A stretch of 59,658 bases of DNA from Actinomycetota bacterium (GTDB lineage Bacteria > Actinomycetota > UBA4738 > HRBIN12): contig JACQDK010000011.1 of assembly GCA_016201135.1 (NCBI GenBank), positions 1 to 59,658 of the forward strand, read 5' to 3'. Of the stretch, positions 3,495-27,830 are shown piece by piece. The position numbers were made by a program, and so were the translations under genes. The stretch's first letter is position 1, and each line of letters opens with the position of its first letter. The notes beneath the pieces are model-generated. The model was given only the letters and a program-made list of their open reading frames with translations, had not been told where the DNA came from and searched no databases.

Positions 3495-4523
3495 GTGGAT
3501 CCCGCGCTCGCGGCGATCGGCTGGCCGGTTCTCGACCGATTCCGGTTCGGGAGCTCGTTCGCGATATCACCGCATGGTCTTGGGATCGCGATCGGGTTCA
3601 TGATCGGCGCGTCGCTGCTCACGCGGATCGGGCCGCCGAGGATCGTTCCCGACGACGGCGTCACTCCCACCGAGGAGCTCGAGCGGCGGCGCGAGAACGT
3701 CCGCGCCGACCTCGACAAGATGCTCTTCTGGGCGCTCGTCGGCACGATCGTCGGGGCTCGCCTGTTCTACGTGATCGCGCACTTCTCCGAGTTCAACGGG
3801 TTCATCGACATGCTCGAGATATGGAAGGGCGGGATCTCGCTCCTGGGCGGGATCGCCGGGGCGGTGCTGATCAATCTCCCGAGGATGCGGAAGCTGGGCT
3901 ACGGGTTCTTCAGCGTGATGGACCCCTCGGTGGTGGCCCTAGCGCTAGGGATCGGGATCGGGCGCGTCGGCGACCTCGTGATCGGCGACCACCTCGGCAA
4001 GCCGGCGCAGTGGCTCCTAGCGTGGCAGTACCGAGGAGGGGCGCTGCCGGGGCCGTGGGTGGAGACGGCGCCGGGTCGGTGGGCCGCCCTGCTCACGGGT
4101 GGCTACGTCGAGACCCTCGACCGGGCGGGCTCAGCGCTCTGCAAGGCGCCCGTGTCGGGGCTGCTCTCGTGCACCGGGCAGCCGGTGCTCGCCCACGGGG
4201 TCGGCGTTCACCAGACCGCGCTCTACGACATGATGCTCGCCTGGGTCCTCTTCGCGGCTCTCTGGCAGATGCAGAAGTGGCCGAGGCGCCTGGGCGTGCT
4301 GACGCTCACCTTCGGGGCCTGGTACGGGTGCATGCGGCTCCTGGAGGACTCCCTCCGTATCGACAAGCGGTTCGGCCCGCTCACCGGCTCCCAATGGACG
4401 GCGCTGGTGGTGGCGCTCGTGTGCGCCGCCACGCTCACGACGTGGGCGATCAGGAAGGATCGCGCCGCGCCGCCTGCGAGCGGCCTCGATGATCACGAGC
4501 GGGCAGGTCCGGTGCCGGCCTGA
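3495..4523 (+). CDS. lgt: Prolipoprotein diacylglyceryl transferase
   Basis: GARLFYV, WKGGISLLGG, GRVGDL, HQTALYD and YGCMRLLED motifs. Confidence 0.88.
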   Translation: MDPALAAIGWPVLDRFRFGSSFAISPHGLGIAIGFMIGASLLTRIGPPRIVPDDGVTPTEELERRRENVRADLDKMLFWALVGTIVGARLFYVIAHFSEFNGFIDMLEIWKGGISLLGGIAGAVLINLPRMRKLGYGFFSVMDPSVVALALGIGIGRVGDLVIGDHLGKPAQWLLAWQYRGGALPGPWVETAPGRWAALLTGGYVETLDRAGSALCKAPVSGLLSCTGQPVLAHGVGVHQTALYDMMLAWVLFAALWQMQKWPRRLGVLTLTFGAWYGCMRLLEDSLRIDKRFGPLTGSQWTALVVALVCAATLTTWAIRKDRAAPPASGLDDHERAGPVPA

Positions 4524-4675
4524 CCGGCCTCGGGCGGCCACGCACACGGACCTGCTAATCTGGTTGTCTCGGGCGTCGCCCGAGGGTTCGCGTCGAGCGA
4601 CCGACCGGTGGCTTTCCGCCGTTCCTCTCTCGCCCCACGGATCTTCTCCGCGTTACTGCGGAAGGAGCGATCGCG

Positions 4676-4867
4676 ATGGCCAGCCGGATCGGCAAGGGCG
4701 TGGAGCTCGGCCCGCCGGAGCGGGGCAAGGGGGCCGCGTCTCGTCCCGAGCGAGGTCGGGTCTGCGACCATCTGGGCTGCCAGACGATCCTTTCCACCTA
4801 CAACTCGTCCGTCGTGTGCTGGACGCATGCGGAGCCGTCCTACCGGCATCCGCTGAGCCACAAGTAG
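4676..4867 (+). CDS. Small putative Zn-finger protein (C-x4-C-x12-C-x2-H)
   Basis: AAGGAG SD upstream. RVCDHLGCQTILSTYNSSVVCWTH. Confidence 0.7.
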   Translation: MASRIGKGVELGPPERGKGAASRPERGRVCDHLGCQTILSTYNSSVVCWTHAEPSYRHPLSHK

Positions 4868-4881
4868 ACGAGGAGATCACG

Positions 4882-5058
4882 GTGAGGCAGGCGACGATCA
4901 ACGCGGCGGAGGACTCGTTCATGCAGGAGATCGAGGAGTTCTACTGCCCGGTGTGCGGGGGCGGCCTGTCGCGATCGGACCTCGAGACGCCCGCGCGCGA
5001 CTACTACTGCCCGTTCTGCAGCACTCGCCAGACGCCCTCGACGCTCAAGGCGTCCTGA
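4882..5058 (+). CDS. Small Zn-ribbon protein (CPVC...CPFC)
   Basis: AGGAG SD at 4871-4875, GTG start, two CPxC knuckles. Confidence 0.7.
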   Translation: MRQATINAAEDSFMQEIEEFYCPVCGGGLSRSDLETPARDYYCPFCSTRQTPSTLKAS

Positions 5059-5071
5059 GGCCGGCGCCCCC

Positions 5072-6196
5072 TCAGTGGGCGGCCCCGCCCGGGCCGGCGA
5101 GCAGAGTCAGAGGCTTCCCCACTCTCGATCTCGTCGCCCTCACGACGGCCGTTGCGGCTTCGCGGAGCGCCACGCTGGCGGGCGTGTCGGGGTCGGTGAC
5201 CACGACGGGGCGGCCCACGTCCCCCCCCGCGCGCAGGGCCGGCATCAGCGGAACCTGCGCCATGAGCGGCACGCCGAGCGTCTCCGCCGCCTCTTTCCCG
5301 CCGCCCGAGCCGAAGATCTCGTCCCGCTCCCCGCAGTGTGGGCACACGTAGTAGCTCATGTTCTCGATCACGCCGATCGGGCGCAGGTTCGTGCGCTCGG
5401 CCATCTTCCCTGCGCGCTCGGCCACCTTCCGGGCGGCCTCCTGCGGCGTCGTCACGACGAGCATCGCCGCGCCCGGAAGGAAGGAGGCGAGGGAGATGGC
5501 GACGTCACCGGTGCCCGGGGGCAGGTCGCAGAGCAGGAAGTCCAGGTCTCCCCAGTACACGTCGCCCAGGAACTGCTCGATCGCCTTGTGCAGCATCGGG
5601 CCGCGCCAGATCACCGGCGTCTCCTCCGGCACGAAGAAGCCCATCGAGATCACCTTCACGCCGTGCGCCTCGAGCGGCAGGATCATGTCGTCGAACCCGA
5701 CCGGCTTGCCCGTCACGCCGATCATGCGCGGCACGCTGAAGCCCCACACGTCGGCGTCGAGGATGCCGACGCGGTAGCCCTCTGCCGCGAGCGCGCACGC
5801 CAGGTTCACCGTGACGCTCGACTTCCCGACACCGCCCTTGCCGGACGCCACCGCGATGATCGAGGTCGACTCGGGGAAGTTGATCTTCGACGGCTGCGGC
5901 GCGGCCGGTGAGCCGCCCCTGAGCTGGTGCACGAGCGCCTCGCGCTGCTCCTGGCTCATGGGGGAAAGGTGGACGTCGACGTTCGCGACGCCGTCCAGCG
6001 GCGCCACCGCGTTCGTCACGTCGCTCGTGATGCGGTCCTTGAGGGGGCAGCCCTCGATCGTGATCAGAACGTCCACGCGGACGGTGCCGCCCTCGACCTC
6101 GATGCCCCGCAGCATTCCGATGTCCTCGATCGGCTTGCCGATCTCCGGATCCATCACCCGTCGAAGGGCCTGGCGGACCTGCTCCTCGGTGACCAC
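5072..6196 (-). CDS. mrp: Mrp/NBP35/ApbC Fe-S cluster carrier ATPase with N-terminal DUF59-like domain
   Basis: DPEIG N-terminus, SGKGGVGKS Walker A, DLPPGTGD, CPHC. GGGAGG SD precedes GTG 6196. Confidence 0.93.
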   Translation of the reverse strand: MVTEEQVRQALRRVMDPEIGKPIEDIGMLRGIEVEGGTVRVDVLITIEGCPLKDRITSDVTNAVAPLDGVANVDVHLSPMSQEQREALVHQLRGGSPAAPQPSKINFPESTSIIAVASGKGGVGKSSVTVNLACALAAEGYRVGILDADVWGFSVPRMIGVTGKPVGFDDMILPLEAHGVKVISMGFFVPEETPVIWRGPMLHKAIEQFLGDVYWGDLDFLLCDLPPGTGDVAISLASFLPGAAMLVVTTPQEAARKVAERAGKMAERTNLRPIGVIENMSYYVCPHCGERDEIFGSGGGKEAAETLGVPLMAQVPLMPALRAGGDVGRPVVVTDPDTPASVALREAATAVVRATRSRVGKPLTLLAGPGGAAH

Positions 6197-6214
6197 GCGG
6201 GCGTCCTCCCGTTT

Positions 6215-6240
6215 CCGTGATAAACACGGTGGGAACCGTG
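6215..6240. promoter_or_regulatory. Two overlapping palindromes in the divergent mrp/regulator spacer, putative operator
   Basis: CCGTG-ATAAA-CACGG (6215-6229) and CACGGT-GGGA-ACCGTG (6225-6240). Confidence 0.45.
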
Positions 6241-6273
6241 CTTTCCCCATGATACGGCCCGCGGAGGCGTCCG

Positions 6274-6945
6274 ATGCCTGAGCCGTCCGACCTGGAGGTC
6301 CACAAGGCGCTCGCCGACGACACCCGACACCGCCTCTACCGGTACCTGCGACTGTCGCGCCGGCCGGTGAGCGTCCGGGAGCTCTCGGCGCGGCTCTCGC
6401 TCCATCCGAACACGCTCAGACCGCACCTGCGCAGGCTCGAGGAGGCTGGACTCGTGGCCACCGAGGCCAGCAAGGGCGCCACCGTCGGCCGCCCGCAGAC
6501 GCTCTACGTCGCGATCGAGCGCGAGGAGGGGGAGGGCCGGGACTACCGGCTGCTCGCCGACATCCTCACCGGCCTGCTCACCGGGGCGCGAGCGCGCGAG
6601 CGCGCCCATGACCTGGCGCGCGACTGGGGGGAGTATCTCGTGGGCAGGAGCGTCCCGAAGCCGGGCGCCCGCAAGCCCTCCGGCCCGAACCTGGCCCTCC
6701 TGCAGGAGGCCCTCGCCGAGGCAGGCTTCGACCCAAGGTTCCGCCGCAAGGGGACGAGGATCGTCGAGATCACCCTGCGCCACTGCCCGTTCCGCGACCT
6801 CGCCGAAGAGCACGGGGACCTCGTCTGCGCGATCCACCGCGGCCTGCTGGAGGGGATGCTCGGGGGCTCCCGCCCGCCCCTTCGCATGACCGAGTTCCTT
6901 CCGCTCACCGACCGGCAGGTGTGCCGGATCATCGCCAGGACCTGA
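6274..6945 (+). CDS. ArsR/SufR-like winged-helix transcriptional regulator with C-terminal CPF...CxxH motif
   Basis: LSLHPNTLRPHLRRLEEAGLV HTH, GRP motif, HCPFRDLAEEHGDLVCAIH. Confidence 0.85.
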   Translation: MPEPSDLEVHKALADDTRHRLYRYLRLSRRPVSVRELSARLSLHPNTLRPHLRRLEEAGLVATEASKGATVGRPQTLYVAIEREEGEGRDYRLLADILTGLLTGARARERAHDLARDWGEYLVGRSVPKPGARKPSGPNLALLQEALAEAGFDPRFRRKGTRIVEITLRHCPFRDLAEEHGDLVCAIHRGLLEGMLGGSRPPLRMTEFLPLTDRQVCRIIART

Positions 6946-6975
6946 GCCCCGGCGCTCCGGGGTGGCTCCGGGGCT
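6945..6975 (+). terminator. GC-rich hairpin after the regulator gene
   Basis: AGCCCCGG (6945-6952) pairs with CCGGGGCT (6968-6975). No clear U-tract. Confidence 0.3.
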
Positions 6976-7056
6976 TGAGTCCGGGCGGATCGCTTCCGAT
7001 GCACTTCTCGGCGCCCGGCGCCGGCGCTCGCGAGGAAGGCGAGGGAGGGAGATACG

Positions 7057-8169
7057 ATGGAGGGGACGAGGTCACCGGTCGTCGTCGAGTTCGACGGTTG
7101 GCTGACTCGGCTGGTTGGCGGCGAGGGCTCCGATCTGCACGTGAAGGTCGGGTCGTCGCCGCTGATCCGCATGCCGGACGGCCTGCTGCGGCTCTCCCGC
7201 GACCCGCTCACGCCGCCGGAGACGCTGGCGATCGCCGAACACGTCGTTCCCGCGGACCGCAGGGCCCGCCTGGAAGAGAGCGGCGAGGTCGACTTCGCCT
7301 ACTCGCTGCCGGACGTCGGCCGCTTCCGCGCCAACGTGTTCAAGCAGCGCGGCTCCGTCAGCATGGTGCTGCGCAAGCTCAGGTTCGGCGGGCCCTCGTT
7401 CGAGGAGATCGGGATGCCCGACGCCGTGCGCACGCTCGCCGAGGAGCACCGGGGACTGATCCTCGTGACCGGTCCCACGGGCGCGGGGAAGACGACGACG
7501 ATCGCGGCGATGATCGAGCACATCAACCGGACGAAGCCCGTTCACATCGTCACGATCGAGGATCCGATCGAGGTGCTTCACAAGGACGATCTCGCGGAGA
7601 TCAACCAGCGCGAGGTCGGCAACGACACGAAGGACTTCCTGTCGGCGCTGCGCGCGGCGCTCCGCCAGGACCCCGACGTGATCGTGATCGGGGAGATGCG
7701 CGACACCGAGACCGTGCGCGCGGCGATCCAGGCCGCCGACACGGGCCACCTCGTGCTGTCGACGCTCCACACGGTCGACGCGACCGAGACGGTGAACCGC
7801 GTCATCGACTTCTTCCCGCCGCACCAACAGCAGCAGATCCGCTACGCGCTCGCCGGTACCCTGCGCGGGATCATCTGCCAGAGGCTGCTCCCCACGATCG
7901 ACGGCTCACGCGCGCCGGCGCTCGAGATCCTCGTGAACACCGGCCGGGTCGCGGAACGGATCGTCGATCCCGAGAAGACCAACGAGATCAAAGACGTGAT
8001 CGCGGAGGGCGGCTACTACGGCATGTCGACGTTCGACCAGGGGCTCCTGGAGCTAGTGCAGCGAGGCCGCGTGACCGTGGAGGCCGCGATGAAAGCGGTC
8101 TCGTCGCCCCACGACTTCACGCTGGCGTTGCAGCAGGCCGGCCTCGAGGCCCCGGCGATCTCGGTCTAG
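7057..8169 (+). CDS. pilT: PilT/PilU family type IV pilus retraction ATPase
   Basis: GPTGAGKTT, TIEDPIE, ALRQDPDVIVIGEMRD, HLVLSTLH. Confidence 0.92.
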   Translation: MEGTRSPVVVEFDGWLTRLVGGEGSDLHVKVGSSPLIRMPDGLLRLSRDPLTPPETLAIAEHVVPADRRARLEESGEVDFAYSLPDVGRFRANVFKQRGSVSMVLRKLRFGGPSFEEIGMPDAVRTLAEEHRGLILVTGPTGAGKTTTIAAMIEHINRTKPVHIVTIEDPIEVLHKDDLAEINQREVGNDTKDFLSALRAALRQDPDVIVIGEMRDTETVRAAIQAADTGHLVLSTLHTVDATETVNRVIDFFPPHQQQQIRYALAGTLRGIICQRLLPTIDGSRAPALEILVNTGRVAERIVDPEKTNEIKDVIAEGGYYGMSTFDQGLLELVQRGRVTVEAAMKAVSSPHDFTLALQQAGLEAPAISV

Positions 8170-8176
8170 GGCTTCC

Positions 8177-9106
8177 TCAGGCCGACGCTCCGGCGCCCTT
8201 CTCGCCGTCCCCGAAGGATCTGCTCGCCATGCCCGACACCCCGGCGAGCAGCGTCGCGAGCTCCATCGGGATCACGAACTTCGTCGAGGGCGACGAGCCG
8301 ATCTGCTTCAGCGCTTCGAGGTACTGAAGGCTCATCGTGTTGCCGTCCACGCCGTGCGCGGTCTCGAAGATCTTCTGGAGCGCCGCGGCGAAGCCCTCCG
8401 CGCGCAGGACCGCCGCCTGCCGCTCGCCCTCGGCGTTAAGGATCGCGGCCTGCTTCGCGCCCTCGGCGTTCAGGATCGCCGACTGCTTGTTGCCCTCCGC
8501 CACGGTGATGGCGGCCTGCTTCTGGCCCTCGGCCTCGGTCACGACCGCGCGCCGCGTGCGCTCGGCCGACATCTGACGGGTCATGGCCTCCTGCACGCTG
8601 GGCGGCGGGATGATCTCGCGGATCTCCACGTTCGTGACCTTCACGCCCCAACGCTCGGTGACCTCGTCGAGCTTCACGCGGAGCACCTCGTTCATCTGCT
8701 CGCGCTTGGCCAGGACGTCGTCGAGGGACATGTCGCCCACCACTGAGCGCAGGGTCGTGGCGGCGATGTTCTGCGCGGCGCCCGCGAAGTTGCCGACCGA
8801 CAGGATCGACATCTGCGCGTCGACGACCTTGTTGAACACGATGAAGTCGATCGAGATCCCCGCGTTGTCCTCGGTGATGGCCGCCTGGTGCGGGATCTCG
8901 AGGTACTGCTCGCGCAGGTCCACGCGAACCACCCGGTCGATGACGGGGATGATGAGGATGAACCCGGGGCCGCGGACGCCGACGCAGCGCCCCAGCCTGA
9001 ACAGCACCAGCCTCTGGTACTCCGGCACGATCTTTATCGCCCTCGGCAGGATCAAGATCGCCAGCAGGAGGATCACTCCCAGCGCGATCAGCGGACCGGT
9101 CACCAC
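8177..9106 (-). CDS. SPFH/band 7 (stomatin-like) protein
   Basis: VDLRE, TTLRSVVGDM, RWGVKVTNVEI, and an AEG-x-K-x-A coiled-coil repeat. Confidence 0.93.
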   Translation of the reverse strand: MVTGPLIALGVILLLAILILPRAIKIVPEYQRLVLFRLGRCVGVRGPGFILIIPVIDRVVRVDLREQYLEIPHQAAITEDNAGISIDFIVFNKVVDAQMSILSVGNFAGAAQNIAATTLRSVVGDMSLDDVLAKREQMNEVLRVKLDEVTERWGVKVTNVEIREIIPPPSVQEAMTRQMSAERTRRAVVTEAEGQKQAAITVAEGNKQSAILNAEGAKQAAILNAEGERQAAVLRAEGFAAALQKIFETAHGVDGNTMSLQYLEALKQIGSSPSTKFVIPMELATLLAGVSGMASRSFGDGEKGAGASA

Positions 9107-9108
9107 GG

Positions 9109-10446
9109 TTACCTCCCTCCCGGCCCCGGCTCCGCCGGCGCCGACTCATCTATCCGTTGCACCTTGAGCCGCAAGCCTTCCACAGCCAGGACCCGCACGT
9201 TCGCGTCCCTGGGCACGGCGCCCGTCTCTGACAGCGCGGTCCACTCCTCGCCCCCGACGCGCACGACGCCCTCGGGGTCCAGGGGGACCGTCACGACGCC
9301 TTTCGCGCCCAGGAGCCGCTCGGACGGAGTGGTCCTGGGCATCCGGCGCGCGGCGATCGCCGCCGTTACGACGGTACCGAAGAACCCGACCAGGGCGAGC
9401 GCCATCGCGCCGATCACCCATGGAGACACCCGTGCGTTGGGGACCGATGGGTTGAACAGCGTGAGTCCGCCAAGGACCAGCGTGACGACTCCACCGAGCG
9501 TGAACGCGCCGAGCCCTGGATGCTTCAGCTCGAGCAGGAAGAAGACCGCCGAGGCGAGCAGCAGCGTCACCCCCAGGAGCTGGACGGGCAGGACGCCGAA
9601 CGAGGCGAACGCGGCGACCAGCGACAGCACGCCGAGGATGCCCGGGATCGTCGCTCCCGGGTGGAGCACCTCGATCACGATGAGGCCGAGTCCCAGGTAG
9701 AAGAAGATGAACGCGAGGTCGGGGGTGAGCAGCGAATGCAGGATCCGGGCCCCCAGGCCCATGCGGGTCTCCCGGATCGTGGCCCCGGCGATGTTGATCG
9801 TGACGATCTTCCCGCCCCCCACCGCCACCTGCGTGCCCTCGACGTCTGCCAGGAGCGCCTCCGTGCTGGGAGCCACGAGGTCGATCACGTTGAGCTCGAG
9901 CGCCGTATCCGCAGGGACGCTCACGGAGTCGCGCACGGCCTGCTCCACCCAGTCCACGTTCCGCCCGCGGAGCTTCGCCAGGGCCTGGATGTAGGCCACG
10001 GCGTCGTTCGTCACCTTCTGCTGCTCTATCGCACCGGCCACGCCCACCGGGTGGGCGGCGCCGACCTCGGTCGCCGGCGCCATCGCGGCAACCGGGCAGG
10101 ACTCGAGGACGAACGTGCCCGCCGAGGCCGCCCTCGCCCCCGGCGGCGCCACGTAGCAGATCACCGGCACGTCGGCGTGCAGGATCGACCCCACGATCTC
10201 GCGCATCGAGGAGTCGAGCCCCCCGGGGGTGTCGATCGTGAGGAGCACCGCGGCAGCGCCGTCGTCCTGCGCCCGAGCGATCCCGTCCCGGATGTAGTTC
10301 GCGACGAAGGGGTCCACGACGCCGTCGAGCGAGAGGTGGGCGACCCAGGGTTCCTGCGCCCCGGCCGGCCCGGCGGCGAGGGCCAGCGCGCCGGCCGAGA
10401 GGCCCGCCGCGAGGATCAGCCGGGCGAGGTGACCAGGGTTGCGCAT
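9109..10446 (-). CDS. nfeD: NfeD family membrane-bound serine protease (long form)
   Basis: DTPGGL, ARAASAG, VGAAHPV, and a C-terminal OB fold (GVVRVGGEEWTA). Adjacent to the SPFH gene. Confidence 0.92.
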   Translation of the reverse strand: MRNPGHLARLILAAGLSAGALALAAGPAGAQEPWVAHLSLDGVVDPFVANYIRDGIARAQDDGAAAVLLTIDTPGGLDSSMREIVGSILHADVPVICYVAPPGARAASAGTFVLESCPVAAMAPATEVGAAHPVGVAGAIEQQKVTNDAVAYIQALAKLRGRNVDWVEQAVRDSVSVPADTALELNVIDLVAPSTEALLADVEGTQVAVGGGKIVTINIAGATIRETRMGLGARILHSLLTPDLAFIFFYLGLGLIVIEVLHPGATIPGILGVLSLVAAFASFGVLPVQLLGVTLLLASAVFFLLELKHPGLGAFTLGGVVTLVLGGLTLFNPSVPNARVSPWVIGAMALALVGFFGTVVTAAIAARRMPRTTPSERLLGAKGVVTVPLDPEGVVRVGGEEWTALSETGAVPRDANVRVLAVEGLRLKVQRIDESAPAEPGPGGR

Positions 10447-10464
10447 AGAAGCAACCTAGCACAG

Positions 10465-10499
10465 GGTGCCCCGGAACGGAAGTCGTCTTCCGGGGCACC
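10465..10499. repeat. Perfect 12-bp inverted repeat in the nfeD/sigma divergent spacer
   Basis: GGTGCCCCGGAA-N11-TTCCGGGGCACC. Confidence 0.75.
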
Positions 10500-10594
10500 G
10501 GCGTGCACGGAAGTTCGCGCGCGTGCCATCATCCCGAGAGGGGGTGTCGGCAAGCCGCGTCGAACGTCGCCTCCGTATATCCGAGGAGAACCTG

Positions 10595-11161
10595 GTGCAG
10601 ACCGAAGGTCCGCTCCTCCCACGGGAGGAACAACAGCTGATGGAACAACTCCTCGCCGGCAGCGACGACGCGGTTCGGACGCTCTATGCGCGCTTCGGAC
10701 GCCCCGTCTACACCCTCGGCATGCGCCTGCTCGGTACCCGCGAGGCCGCGGAGGAGCTCACCCAGGACGTCTTCCTCACGGCGTGGCGAAAGGCCGCGAG
10801 GTTCGACGCGGCTCGCGGGCGGCTGTCCACGTGGCTGATGACGATCGCCCACAACCTCGCGGTTGATCGCCTCCGGCGCGAGACCGGCGTGTCACGCCCG
10901 ACGCTCGTCCTGGTCGACGAGGTGCCCGACGCGCCCTCGGCCGGCGAAGAGGACGTCCTGATGGAGCGCGACGCGGCCCTGCGCGCACTGTCGTCTCTCA
11001 CCGAAGCCGAGCGGAGGCTCCTGGGCCGAGCGTACTTCCGCGGCCTGACCGCGCGGGAGATAGCGGAGGCGGACGGCATCCCGCTCGGCACCGTGAAGAC
11101 CCGCTTGCGCGCGGCGCTCATCAAGGTCCGCCGGGCGAACGAGGACAAGGGGCAGCAGTGA
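10595..11161 (+). CDS. ECF sigma-70 factor (SigK-like)
   Basis: AEELTQDVFLTAWR, FDAARG, WLMTIAHNLAVDRLR, IPLGTVKTR. GAGGAG SD before GTG 10595. Confidence 0.9.
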   Translation: MQTEGPLLPREEQQLMEQLLAGSDDAVRTLYARFGRPVYTLGMRLLGTREAAEELTQDVFLTAWRKAARFDAARGRLSTWLMTIAHNLAVDRLRRETGVSRPTLVLVDEVPDAPSAGEEDVLMERDAALRALSSLTEAERRLLGRAYFRGLTAREIAEADGIPLGTVKTRLRAALIKVRRANEDKGQQ

Positions 11162-20078: not shown

Positions 20079-20459
20079 TCAGCTCCTCGAGGCGAGGATC
20101 CCGATGAGCGCGAACCCGTACGCGACGGTCGCGACGCCCAGCCCCGCGAGCGCTCGCGACGCGCGACGCCGCGACGTCTCGGACAGGCCGAGGTCGAACA
20201 GCACCGATCGCAGGCCGAGCATCGCGTGCCACGTCACTACCACCAGGAACAGCGACTCGATCACGAAGATCACGGGATTGCCGATGTACTCCAGGACCTG
20301 CCGGTACGAGCGGAGCCCGCCGACCGACTGCACGACGAAGTGGTGGGCGACCATGTGCACCGTCACGAGCGCGAGCACGGCGACCCCGCTCAGCGCGGTC
20401 GCGCGCCATGCGCGGGAGCCGCCCGGCGTGACCGGAGGTCGAGAGTGGGCGACCGTCAT
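20079..20459 (-). CDS. SdhD-like hydrophobic membrane anchor subunit
   Basis: Three TM helices, VTVHMVAHH and WHAMLGLR His motifs, ATGA overlap with the upstream gene. Confidence 0.85.
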   Translation of the reverse strand: MTVAHSRPPVTPGGSRAWRATALSGVAVLALVTVHMVAHHFVVQSVGGLRSYRQVLEYIGNPVIFVIESLFLVVVTWHAMLGLRSVLFDLGLSETSRRRASRALAGLGVATVAYGFALIGILASRS

Positions 20460-20890
20460 CGGCTCCCCAAGATGTGCAGCGCTCCGTAGAGCAAGAGGAT
20501 CGCCGCTACCGTCATGACCGTCCACAGCAGGGCCTTCTGGCGATCCGGCGCGACGCCGGTGCCGATCAGCGCCACGCGCAGCCCGTTCAGCCCGTGCACC
20601 AACAGCCCGAAGAGGAGGAGCACGTCCATACCCAGCAGCGCCGGGGTGGTGGCCACCCGCAGGAACGAGCCCCACGCGCCCGGACCCCGAAGCAGCAGCG
20701 AGAGGACGGCGAGGTGCAGGTAGAGGTAGAAGACGAGGCCCAGGCCCGCCAGGCGGCTGATCGAGAAGGCGACGCTCCCGGCGCGACGCCGGCGCACGTC
20801 GAACCAGGCAACCGGTCCGGGCGCCTTGCGGAGCACCGGGCCCGGCGCCCTGCGGGCGTCGCGGATCGCGTCCAGGTCGTTCGGGTTCAT
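20456..20890 (-). CDS. SdhC-like cytochrome b membrane subunit
   Basis: SISRLAGLGL, YLYLHL and HGLNGLR motifs, three TM helices, ATGA overlap. Confidence 0.87.
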   Translation of the reverse strand: MNPNDLDAIRDARRAPGPVLRKAPGPVAWFDVRRRRAGSVAFSISRLAGLGLVFYLYLHLAVLSLLLRGPGAWGSFLRVATTPALLGMDVLLLFGLLVHGLNGLRVALIGTGVAPDRQKALLWTVMTVAAILLLYGALHILGSR

Positions 20891-21618
20891 CGGACCGTCT
20901 CCCGGTGGAGCACCAGCTCCCGGCGGAGCGCCATGATCCGCTCGGCCGGGCGGACGTCCGAAGGGCAGGCCTCGGTGCACTCGAACGCGGCGTGGCAGCG
21001 CCACGCCGCGTTGTCGTCGTCGGCCCAGGAGAGGATCGCGGCGCGGTCCGCGCCGCGATCCTCTTCCAGCAACCGCTGGGCGTACGCGAGCGCGGCCGGC
21101 CCCACGTACGTCTCGTCGGTCGCGACCACCGGGCACGCCGACAGGCAGAGCCCGCACTCGATGCAGTCCTCGAAGCGCTCGTGGGCATCGATCCCCTCTG
21201 GCAACTCGGAAGCGGAGACGAGCTCGCTCGTCCGCACGAGCGGGGGTGGCAGCGGGAACCGCGCGTAGAAGGACGCCATGTCCACGACCAGGTCCTGCAG
21301 CAGCGGGAGGTTCGCGATCGGCTCGATGGTGACGGGGCCCTGCCCGAGCGAGGCGACGTCGGTCACGCAGGCGAGCACCTCTCGGCCGTTCACTCGCATC
21401 CCGCAGGTTCCGCACGAGGCGTGGAAGCACGAATGCCGGAGGCCCAGGGCCGCGTCTCGATGTACCCGGATCCACCGGAGGGCCTCGAGGACGGTCGTTC
21501 CCTCGGTCACAGGAACCTCGAACTCCTCGAACCGCGGCGGGCGCCCGTCGCGCGAGAAGCGGGACACCCGGAGGGTCCTCGTCGTCGTCGCGGGCTCCGG
21601 GAGCGTCGCGGTATCCAT
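20887..21618 (-). CDS. SdhB/FrdB-like iron-sulfur subunit
   Basis: [2Fe-2S] CFHASCGTC-x11-C, [4Fe-4S] CIECGLCLSACP, [3Fe-4S] CHAAFECTEACP. Confidence 0.93.
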   Translation of the reverse strand: MDTATLPEPATTTRTLRVSRFSRDGRPPRFEEFEVPVTEGTTVLEALRWIRVHRDAALGLRHSCFHASCGTCGMRVNGREVLACVTDVASLGQGPVTIEPIANLPLLQDLVVDMASFYARFPLPPPLVRTSELVSASELPEGIDAHERFEDCIECGLCLSACPVVATDETYVGPAALAYAQRLLEEDRGADRAAILSWADDDNAAWRCHAAFECTEACPSDVRPAERIMALRRELVLHRETVR

Positions 21619-22808
21619 CAGGCTGCGTAGTGGGCCGTGTGGGGGAGCAGGACGGTCTCGCGCGTGCGGCACCGCTCGTCCACCCCGAGCTTGCGGCAGA
21701 CGACGTCGGCGCAGAGCTCGGCCATCCCGCGGAGCGTGGTGGCCTTGCCCCCGGTGATCGTGACGAATCCCTCGACGCGGTCGGCCTCTGCGTGATCGAT
21801 CGCCTTGAAGGTCCTCGACAACTCCCGGCCGGTGTCGGCTCCGCGCGAGCCGATCAGCGGCCGGGCCGCGGACCACGCGGCGCGGAACCGCGCCCCGCGG
21901 ACGGCCGGGATCAGCTTCTCGCCCTCCTCCCACATCCTTCGGACGTGGTCCTGCGGCACGTCGAGCTCCTCGGGGTCCTCGACCACCCAGGAGCTCGTGC
22001 CCACGATGGAGAGCGCTCGCTGGGGGACGATGATGTCGCCGTCCCCGGAGCGGTGCAGCCGGTTCAGGACCATGTTGCAGAGGCGTCCGCGCAGGGCGAG
22101 CATCACCCCGGGGGAAGGCCGGATCGGGACGTCGACTCCGGCCATCCTGGCGACCTGCTCCGACCAGGGTCCGGTGGCGTTCACGGTCACGTCGGCCTGG
22201 ATCTCGGCGTCGCGCCCGGTCACCTGGTCGAGCACCGCCGCCCCGCTCACGATCCCGCCGTGGATCAGCAGCCCCGTCACCTCCATGTGGTTCAGGATCT
22301 CGGCGCCGTTGGCCCTGGCCGTGGCGAAGAAACGCAGGGGCATCCGCATCGCGTCCATGGTCGCGTCCGGCACGCGCACCGCCGCCTTCAGCGAGGGGTT
22401 CAGGTTCGGCTCGAGCCGCAGGGCCTGCTCCGGCGAGAGGAGCTGGGCCGGGATGCGGCTCGCCTCGCATCCCTCGAGGAAGGCGGGCAGGTACTCCATG
22501 TCCTCCTCGGTGAGCGCGACGAAGAGGCCGTCGTTCTCCTCGAACGACCCCGCAGCGATCCGCCGCAGGATCGTGTTCTCCTCGATGCACTCGACGGCGG
22601 ACTCGGGATCACTCACTGCGTAGCGCGCGCCGCTGTGCAGGAGCCCATGGTGGCGCCCCGTGGTGCCCGACGTGAGCTCGCCGCGCTCGACCAGAGTCAC
22701 ACGCACGCCGCGGAGCGCCAGGTCGTGCGCTAGCGCGGCGCCCGTTCCTCCTCCGCCCACGATCAGCACGCGGGCGTCCGGGGCTCGCGGTGCGGGCGTC
22801 GCCATCAC
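21618..22808 (-). CDS. glpA: GlpA-type FAD-dependent glycerol-3-phosphate dehydrogenase subunit, short form lacking the C-terminal BFD-like domain
   Basis: VGGGGTG, GTTGRHHGLLHSGARYAVSDPESAVECIEEN and ITGGKATT match GlpA as recalled. 396 aa; directly follows glpK. Confidence 0.88.
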   Translation of the reverse strand: MMATPAPRAPDARVLIVGGGGTGAALAHDLALRGVRVTLVERGELTSGTTGRHHGLLHSGARYAVSDPESAVECIEENTILRRIAAGSFEENDGLFVALTEEDMEYLPAFLEGCEASRIPAQLLSPEQALRLEPNLNPSLKAAVRVPDATMDAMRMPLRFFATARANGAEILNHMEVTGLLIHGGIVSGAAVLDQVTGRDAEIQADVTVNATGPWSEQVARMAGVDVPIRPSPGVMLALRGRLCNMVLNRLHRSGDGDIIVPQRALSIVGTSSWVVEDPEELDVPQDHVRRMWEEGEKLIPAVRGARFRAAWSAARPLIGSRGADTGRELSRTFKAIDHAEADRVEGFVTITGGKATTLRGMAELCADVVCRKLGVDERCRTRETVLLPHTAHYAA

Positions 22809-27118: not shown

Positions 27119-27148
27119 TTGACAAGGCGGTCGGGACGGGCGGATTGT
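27119..27148 (+). promoter_or_regulatory. Putative promoter for dhaL2-gylR
   Basis: TTGACA (27119-27124), N18, GATTGT; GTG 27156 lies 7 nt downstream. Confidence 0.4.
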
Positions 27149-27155
27149 GAGGTCG

Positions 27156-27830
27156 GTGAGCGGTCCCAAGGCAAGTCGCAGGGGAACGCGCGGCCCGCGG
27201 TTCGACGCGGAATCGGTGCGCCGATGGGTGCGTGAGTCGGCAACCGAGATGTCGGCGCATCGCGACCTTCTGACCCAGCTCGACGCGGCGATCGGGGACG
27301 CCGACCACGGCATCAACATGGAGCGCGGCTTCACCGCAGCTGCCGCGGCCATGGAGACCGCGAACGGCGCCACCCCCGGGGAGATCCTGCTGGAGACCGC
27401 GTCGACCCTGATGTTCCGGGTTGGGGGCGCCGCCGGGCCTCTTTACGGGTCGGGCTTCCGCGAGGCGGGGAACTCGCTCGGGAAGGCCGCGTCGTTCGGC
27501 CCGCAGGACCTGGTGGACGCGCTCCGTGCGGCGCTCGCAGGCATCCAGGCCGTGGGCGCGGCCGTCGAGGGGGACAAGACCATGGTCGACGCGTGGGCGC
27601 CCGCGGTGGAGGCGCTCGGGCGGGAGATCTCCGCTGGCGATGACATCGTGGAGGCGCTGGGGCGGGCGCGGGAGGCGGCGGAGGCCGGTGCCCAGGCCAC
27701 CGTGCCCCTCCAGGCGCGGAAGGGTCGCGCCTCCTACCTGGGACCGCGGAGCGTCGGGCATCGAGACCCCGGTGCGTCCTCAACGTCGTTGCTCTTCGCG
27801 GCACTCGAACGGGCCCTTCGGGAGGCGTGA
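27156..27830 (+). CDS. dhaL: Second DhaL paralogue
   Basis: LDAAIGDADHGINMERGF, GGAAGPLYG, GDKTMVDA, GRASYLG. Start is GTG 27156 or 27147. Confidence 0.9.
   Translation: MSGPKASRRGTRGPRFDAESVRRWVRESATEMSAHRDLLTQLDAAIGDADHGINMERGFTAAAAAMETANGATPGEILLETASTLMFRVGGAAGPLYGSGFREAGNSLGKAASFGPQDLVDALRAALAGIQAVGAAVEGDKTMVDAWAPAVEALGREISAGDDIVEALGRAREAAEAGAQATVPLQARKGRASYLGPRSVGHRDPGASSTSLLFAALERALREA

Follow-up and report, generated by a model that had tools for sequence, protein, structure and literature searches.

The textbook flavin adenine dinucleotide (FAD)-dependent sn-glycerol-3-phosphate (G3P) dehydrogenases are GlpD, GlpABC and GlpO. In canonical GlpABC, electrons leave GlpA through a BFD [2Fe-2S] domain at its C terminus and pass on to GlpB/GlpC. 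Textbooks present SdhB, SdhC and SdhD as exclusive partners of SdhA or FrdA. Here we describe a locus in a stretch of 59,658 nucleotides from an Actinomycetota bacterium (contig JACQDK010000011.1 of assembly GCA_016201135.1; hereafter the window), in which a short glpA-like gene is followed by sdhB-, sdhC- and sdhD-like genes. These four genes probably encode one membrane-bound G3P:menaquinone oxidoreductase. A first-pass annotation of the DNA had proposed that a GlpA-type head sits on an electron wire of SdhB, SdhC and SdhD, and this reading is well supported by sequence comparison because synteny, exchange with a glpABC cassette, co-phylogeny, natural gene fusions and conserved cofactor ligands agree.

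The first-pass annotation had implied that the architecture was new, but it is already in print. In the study that characterized the GlpA-CoxG G3P dehydrogenase of Sulfolobus acidocaldarius (Schmerling et al., Commun Biol 2025, PMC11962113; bioRxiv 10.1101/2024.02.29.582781), a glpA gene followed by homologs of sdh b, c and d was recognized from synteny in Thermofilum-related archaea and labeled "GlpA-SdhBCD (T. pendens)" (PMC11962113, Fig. 9b). The architecture has therefore been named, as archaeal and from gene order, and the window holds a bacterial member of the predicted kind. The gene order that defines the type, a shortened glpA and then sdhB-, sdhC- and sdhD-like genes, is that of the window. 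Like the window, the Thermofilum pendens/Thermofilales system has a GlpA-type flavoprotein without GlpB or GlpC, followed by sdh b, c and d homologs. It differs in being archaeal and described from gene order only, in one sentence and one figure panel, so that the likeness drawn here is to the described gene order. In a full-text literature search, SdhBCD was linked to glycerol-3-phosphate only in this paper and its preprint, and broader searches returned nothing on bacteria. Bacterial glpA is said in the same paper to co-occur consistently with glpB and glpC (PMC11962113); the bacterial glpA-sdhBCD clades presented below contradict this.

A short GlpA with complex II-type partners

The four genes lie on the minus strand between glpK and dhaM (Table 1) and are coupled by overlaps of 1–4 nt, as the first-pass annotation had described. 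The glpA/sdhB junction is TGATG, a 1-nt overlap, and the sdhB/sdhC and sdhC/sdhD junctions are each ATGA, with 4-nt overlaps. Also as described, no sdhA, glpB or glpC is found among the open reading frames (ORFs) of the cluster. The source is a 2.24-Mb metagenome-assembled genome (MAG) of 89.8% completeness, of which the window is contig C36. This MAG is fragmented, into 132 contigs, which would allow the glpA/sdhB junction at 21618 to have arisen through misassembly or misbinning, or to be what is left of a decaying glpABC or sdhCDAB operon. However, none of the four frames has a stop or a frameshift, and the same junction, with intact frames, recurs in more than 60 independent assemblies, including contigs of 0.5–1.8 Mb. 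We take this conservation to rule out an artefact or gene loss at 21618 and give such an origin next to no credence.

The flavoprotein is of the GlpA type and lacks the BFD domain, in agreement with the earlier description. It matches TIGR03377 (GlpA) over profile positions 2–379 of 530 with 456.5 bits (E = 1.1e-136); this score falls under the cut-off of 552.8 bits because the C-terminal (BFD) part is missing. PF01266 (DAO) matches with E = 3.7e-51 and PF00890 only weakly, at the N terminus (3e-11); the profile search gave no match to PF04324 (BFD). In alignment, the end of the protein at residue 396 is the exact start of the BFD domain in E. coli GlpA and in the GlpA of a sister genus, G014. 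The protein shares 43% identity with GlpA and 23% with GlpD of E. coli, and carries the TTGRHHGLLHSGARY motif at residues 49–63. Residues R62/Y63, R316, R332, H339, K355 and R360 are invariant across the short GlpA, E. coli GlpA and GlpD (R62/Y63, R316 and K355 correspond to GlpD R54/Y55, R317 and K354); several of them probably line the substrate site. The best solved relatives of the protein are G3P dehydrogenases and oxidases. Of the features of the GlpA family it has the DAO-type FAD/substrate domain, and it is without the four-cysteine BFD [2Fe-2S] domain and the glpB/glpC partners.

The SdhB-like protein matches TIGR00384 (dhsB) with 188.5 bits (cut-off 88), as well as PF13085 and PF13183. 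The first-pass annotation had noted three cluster motifs, and their 11 cysteines can be located at residues 64/69/72/84 ([2Fe-2S]), 152/155/158/162 ([4Fe-4S]) and 208/214/218 ([3Fe-4S]); each is 97–100% conserved among 64 sequences. The best match in the PDB is 6LUM_B, the SdhB of Mycobacterium smegmatis Sdh2 (E = 6e-36). The sdhC- and sdhD-like proteins match PF01127 (Sdh_cyt) with 32.9 and 51.8 bits, respectively, against a cut-off of 25.8. In 6LUM, heme bP is held by His D107 and His C87, and heme bD by His D65 and His C47 (PMC7447783). Alignment of the sdhC-like protein to 6LUM_C places H59 at His C47 and H99 at His C87, with conservation of 100% and 98%, respectively, among 45 sequences. 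In the sdhD-like protein, H35 and H78 align to the two heme-ligand positions of 6LUM_C and are 100% conserved (45 sequences); H40 is invariant too. By these predicted heme sites, the anchor would be a two-subunit, di-heme, type-A-like one. The locus has the three-cluster iron-sulfur subunit and the bis-histidine Sdh_cyt anchor of complex II, with no SdhA or FrdA encoded alongside the B subunit.

A canonical sdhA (784 bits, TIGR01812) with an adjoining sdhB is encoded elsewhere in the genome, on contig C18, so the glpA-sdhBCD hybrid is not the complex II of this organism. The first-pass annotation had suggested looking for a separate complete sdhABCD; beyond the sdhA-sdhB pair, we found only an sdhC-like gene, at the end of contig C110. 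Neither GlpB nor GlpC was found in the 89.8%-complete genome, and a search of all its ORFs with the short GlpA returned no GlpD-like paralog, only SoxB and DMGDH-type proteins. The genome encodes MenA, which fits menaquinone as the pool quinone.

Conservation, cassette exchange and natural fusions

We searched 61 related genomes. A short GlpA, 72–82% identical, is present in 17 of the 37 genomes of the same family, the window's own included. Downstream of it, sdhB and sdhC are found in all 16 sister-genus loci and sdhD in 15, the sequence stretch of the remaining one (L017) ending before the sdhD position. Upstream, glpK directly precedes the short glpA in 15 of 15 sister loci with an upstream flank (the stretch of L015 begins at glpA) and also in many Chloroflexota loci. 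The wider stretches (L022–L026, L030) preserve the complete glpF-dhaK-dhaL-glpK-glpA-sdhB-sdhC-sdhD-dhaM order of the window's minus-strand operon. In three further sister genera (G014, G008 and G029), the same operon frame holds a long GlpA between glpK and dhaM. In G014 the slot is occupied by canonical glpA-glpB-glpC, with a GlpA of 529 aa that has the BFD cysteines; in G008 and G029 only the long GlpA was read. The alternation of two cassettes in one operon slot within one family is the strongest computational argument that both have the same function.

Close homologs of the short GlpA are abundant. A first protein search returned thousands, the best 120 of them ∼79–85% identical, and a profile-free search of 1.84 billion representatives gave 507 clusters at E < 1e-30, many of 380–420 aa. 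To survey gene neighborhoods, as the first-pass annotation had proposed, one genome per species was scanned, giving 80 named loci. A short GlpA adjoins an SdhB-like gene in 63 of these: SdhC/D genes are also present in 44, from Actinomycetota (including Solirubrobacteraceae, Streptosporangiaceae and Actinophytocola MAGs), many Chloroflexota classes and Dormibacterota, and SdhB alone accompanies GlpA in 19, from Spirochaetota, Desulfobacterota and UASB14. The two-gene forms are presumably soluble or peripheral. Examples without Sdh_cyt genes downstream (L060, L064, L073, L076, L077, L081 and L090) nest inside the hybrid clade in both the SdhB and the GlpA trees. Long GlpA with GlpB/C occupies 13 of the 80 loci, in Gaiellales, Bacteroidales, Selenomonadales, two Chloroflexota MAGs and one deltaproteobacterial MAG. 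L047 and L067 each combine the two cassettes; in L047 (positions 4923–11091, a Streptosporangiaceae MAG), glpA(short)-sdhBCD is followed directly by glpA(long, with BFD)-glpB-glpC.

Could the same architecture act on a substrate other than G3P, for instance a 2-hydroxy acid or a different phosphorylated polyol? The flavoprotein scores below the GlpA equivalog cut-off (456 against 552.8 bits), and some cassettes lack glpK and lie beside a GFO/IDH/MocA oxidoreductase (L032), an aldo-keto reductase (L144) or an amino-acid-type ABC transporter (L149/L150). The score shortfall is, however, explained by the missing BFD part, and the protein retains the invariant residues shared with E. coli GlpA and GlpD. 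The closest solved folds, as noted, are those of G3P enzymes; in the window and its sister-genus loci glpA follows glpK inside a glpF-dhaKL-glpK operon; and the slot is filled by canonical glpABC or a long GlpA in the three genera above. We therefore consider another substrate improbable for the window's enzyme.

Several other loci depart from the four-gene form. In L149 (positions 4001–6626) and L150, a hybrid cassette of SdhB/C/D-like genes and a short GlpA 45% identical to that of the window neighbors no glycerol genes but a branched-chain-amino-acid-type ABC transporter; this lineage may have a different substrate. Among thermophile-like short representatives, P0147 is a hybrid cassette adjoining an ABC transporter, and P0222 is a stand-alone short GlpA. 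In two Anaerolineae MAGs (L097, positions 4992–6542, and L098), short GlpAs of 386–390 aa group with the GlpABC clade and have no glpB, glpC or sdhB nearby; the next ORF in L097, of 126 aa, has no Pfam match, and its product may be a further type of partner. In L141 (G066:C3, a Chloroflexota MAG), SdhB/C/D-like genes of the hybrid clade lie ∼290 nt downstream of an FGGY-family kinase gene, with no flavoprotein gene.

Trees of SdhB and GlpA were built quickly, with limited canonical sampling and midpoint rooting. The first-pass annotation had asked for the B subunit to be placed against true Sdh: 62 hybrid-type SdhB rows from five phyla (61 GlpA-partnered and one next to a kinase gene) are split from 15 SdhA-adjacent SdhB of the same genomes with a Shimodaira-Hasegawa-like approximate likelihood ratio (SH-aLRT) support of 99. 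On this tree, the partnered SdhB-like proteins are an old lineage of their own, distinct from canonical SdhB. In the GlpA tree, 66 short GlpA rows stand apart from GlpABC-type GlpA with support of 100, and the window's protein is outside the GlpABC clade. The two trees have matching subclades, the window's actinobacterial clade grouping with Ardenticatenia/Promineifilum-type Chloroflexota in both, so the cassette appears to travel as one unit, by descent as well as by transfer. The first-pass annotation had spoken of a flavoprotein head swapped on a complex II wire. The hybrid composition stands; recent recruitment of a housekeeping SdhBCD is rejected on the SdhB tree and on the separate canonical sdhA-sdhB.

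Natural fusions join the two proteins directly. A concatenated GlpA + SdhB query returned ∼30 clusters of GlpA-SdhB fusions, 664–752 aa long with DAO, Fer2_3 and Fer4 domains. Carriers include the cultured Cellulomonas sp. P24 and SG140, Actinotalea, Isoptericola and Pengzhenrongella, and in Cellulomonas sp. SG140 two Sdh_cyt genes lie downstream of the fusion. At the joint, a conserved GlpA tail (…CRTRE.VLLPHTAYY) leads into a low-complexity linker of ∼40 residues and then the SdhB N terminus. An AlphaFold2 model of the single-chain fusion, from a 144-row alignment, has a mean predicted local distance difference test score (pLDDT) of 90.4 and a predicted template modeling score (pTM) of 0.90, with disorder confined to the linker and the extreme C terminus. 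A Foldseek search with this model matches its head to GlpD, GlpO and the B. halodurans G3P dehydrogenase. Fusion candidates among the 50%-identity representatives (P0262, P0163, P0141 and others) were rejected, having proved to be GlpA+BFD, GlpA-GlpB or unrelated fusions. The SdhB module is also found in other fusions (P0314, P0316–P0319, P0320–P0342), namely SdhB-SdhC of ∼375–389 aa and SdhB-CCG (PF02754) of ∼530 aa, with Solirubrobacteraceae and Binatia MAGs among the carriers of the latter.

The fusions bear on a further alternative, in which the short GlpA acts alone in the manner of GlpD or the Sulfolobus enzyme, delivering electrons straight to quinone, and the SdhB/C/D-like proteins are a membrane dock or a succinate/fumarate enzyme with an SdhA encoded in trans. 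An SdhA is indeed encoded elsewhere in the genome, GlpA + SdhB forms without an anchor occur, and in vitro the short GlpA of Sulfolobus reduces ubiquinone-1 when CoxG is absent (PMC11962113). A mere dock, however, would not be expected to conserve 11 cysteines and four heme histidines across phyla; the canonical sdhA already has an adjoining sdhB, from which the partnered SdhB clade is distinct in the same genomes; and the genes are translationally coupled in the window and fused elsewhere. On this evidence, independent action of the flavoprotein is very improbable.

Predicted electron path and comparison with known enzymes

In the proposed G3P:menaquinone oxidoreductase, G3P made from glycerol by GlpK would be oxidized by the short GlpA to dihydroxyacetone phosphate on a non-covalent FAD. 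The flavin electrons would pass to the [2Fe-2S] cluster of the dedicated SdhB-like subunit, which would replace the lost BFD cluster and GlpBC, and then through [4Fe-4S] and [3Fe-4S] to heme bP and heme bD, if the heme sites are occupied as predicted, and the di-heme anchor would reduce menaquinone at a putative quinone site. In M. smegmatis Sdh2 a proximal quinone site is lacking, and menaquinone is reduced at distal sites, on the far side of the membrane. If an Sdh2-like quinone site holds here, we infer that electron transfer would cross the membrane, which is puzzling for an exergonic reaction.

Three described enzymes share parts of this design. To the anaerobic G3P dehydrogenase of E. 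coli, GlpABC, it is linked by the GlpA catalytic domain, the substrate context and the operon slot in G014, and GlpABC electrons are thought to reach menaquinone, as proposed for the window's complex. Unlike GlpABC, the window has no BFD domain, GlpB or GlpC; its wire is a three-cluster SdhB-type protein, and its anchor is integral with two predicted hemes, whereas GlpC is a peripheral CCG-domain protein. With M. smegmatis Sdh2 (6LUM), a type A di-heme succinate:menaquinone oxidoreductase and the best PDB match for all of the B, C and D subunits, it shares the three-cluster B subunit, two three-helix anchors and four axial histidines. In contrast to the SdhA of Sdh2 (PF00890 + PF02910, covalent FAD), the head is of the DAO-fold GlpA type with non-covalent FAD, the substrate is predicted to be G3P rather than succinate, and the B subunit falls in a clade of its own. 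The GlpA-CoxG enzyme of S. acidocaldarius likewise has a shortened GlpA without BFD or GlpBC, which a non-canonical partner brings to the membrane (PMC11962113). That partner, a small CoxG-like protein, carries no redox cofactors, whereas those in the window have three iron-sulfur clusters and two heme sites, as predicted.

Several points weigh against a G3P:menaquinone oxidoreductase. The literature search found no biochemical data on any GlpA-SdhBCD member, and the flavoprotein-SdhB contact is deduced from gene fusion and the single-chain AlphaFold2 model. Electron transfer from G3P to menaquinone is exergonic, and energetically it does not require a di-heme anchor. The MAG is incomplete, so that the absence of GlpD is not proven, and the cassette relatives outside glycerol operons (L032, L144, L149) imply that G3P may not be the substrate family-wide. 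Finally, the partner-free quinone reduction by the Sulfolobus short GlpA in vitro (PMC11962113) indicates that activity does not strictly require a wire.

A broader account is tentative, and we think it doubtful in its entirety. By this account, the locus would belong to a large class of respiratory G3P dehydrogenases, found mainly in bacteria, that arose when a DAO-fold flavoprotein with no relationship to SdhA acquired, in a single event, the entire iron-sulfur/di-heme module of complex II. The cassette would later have moved between phyla and been remodeled into fused, two- and four-subunit forms, and G3P oxidation with transmembrane electron transfer would be coupled to the membrane potential, unlike that by GlpD or GlpABC.

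The glycerol operon and implications for respiration

The cluster sits in a compact operon (Table 1). The G+C content of the window is ∼70%, and a promoter/terminator scan of the operon, uninformative at such a composition, found nothing. The end of glpK lies ∼110 nt upstream of glpA, and dhaM starts 9 nt past the sdhD stop. No dihydroxyacetone-making glycerol dehydrogenase is encoded in the operon.

Table 1. Positions in the window of the operon genes and the two divergent genes next to them.
Feature	Position	Strand	Basis
glpF, glycerol facilitator, ∼255 aa; opens the operon	26950-26183	-	ORF; place conserved in relatives
dhaK, dihydroxyacetone kinase subunit	26179-25139	-	ORF; operon place conserved in relatives
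dhaL, dihydroxyacetone kinase subunit	25074-24433	-	ORF; operon place conserved in relatives
glpK, glycerol kinase, 498 aa	24414-22918	-	ORF; place conserved in relatives
Short glpA-like gene, 396 aa	22808-21618	-	ORF and profile matches
sdhB-like gene, 243 aa	21618-20887	-	ORF and profile matches
sdhC-like anchor gene, 144 aa	20890-20456	-	ORF and PF01127
sdhD-like anchor gene, 126 aa	20459-20079	-	ORF and PF01127
DhaM-HPr-Enzyme I fusion, 827 aa; closes the operon	20069-17586	-	Domain profiles
DhaL-like gene, 227 aa; divergent from glpF	27147-27830	+	ORF
IclR-type regulator, ∼257 aa	27886-28659	+	Assigned by eye from N-terminal helix-turn-helix sequence

The DhaM protein matches PF03610, PF00381, PF05524, PF00391 and PF02896, as well as TIGR01417 (E = 5e-147) and PRK11377 (E = 4e-116). 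It comprises DhaM (EIIA-Man-like), HPr and an entire Enzyme I with its phosphoenolpyruvate (PEP)-binding C-terminal domain, and is predicted from these domains to be a self-contained PEP-dependent phosphoryl donor for DhaKL. Loci of Actinomycetota and Chloroflexota have the fusion in the corresponding place of the operon. The divergent DhaL-like gene may have a regulatory role; an opposite-strand DhaL-like match upstream of glpF is also present in sister genera.

The glpA-sdhBCD family breaks both textbook rules, the list of G3P dehydrogenases and the exclusivity of SdhB, SdhC and SdhD, and it is often found in Actinomycetota and Chloroflexota of soils and sediments. Its parts are labeled automatically as "FAD-dependent oxidoreductase" and "succinate dehydrogenase iron-sulfur subunit", so metabolic reconstructions can miss glycerol respiration or over-count complex II. 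The family presents the wire and anchor of complex II as a portable module, and raises the energetic question of why an exergonic reaction should use a di-heme anchor. Because cultured strains of the Cellulomonas group carry the fused form, the enzyme is accessible at the bench.

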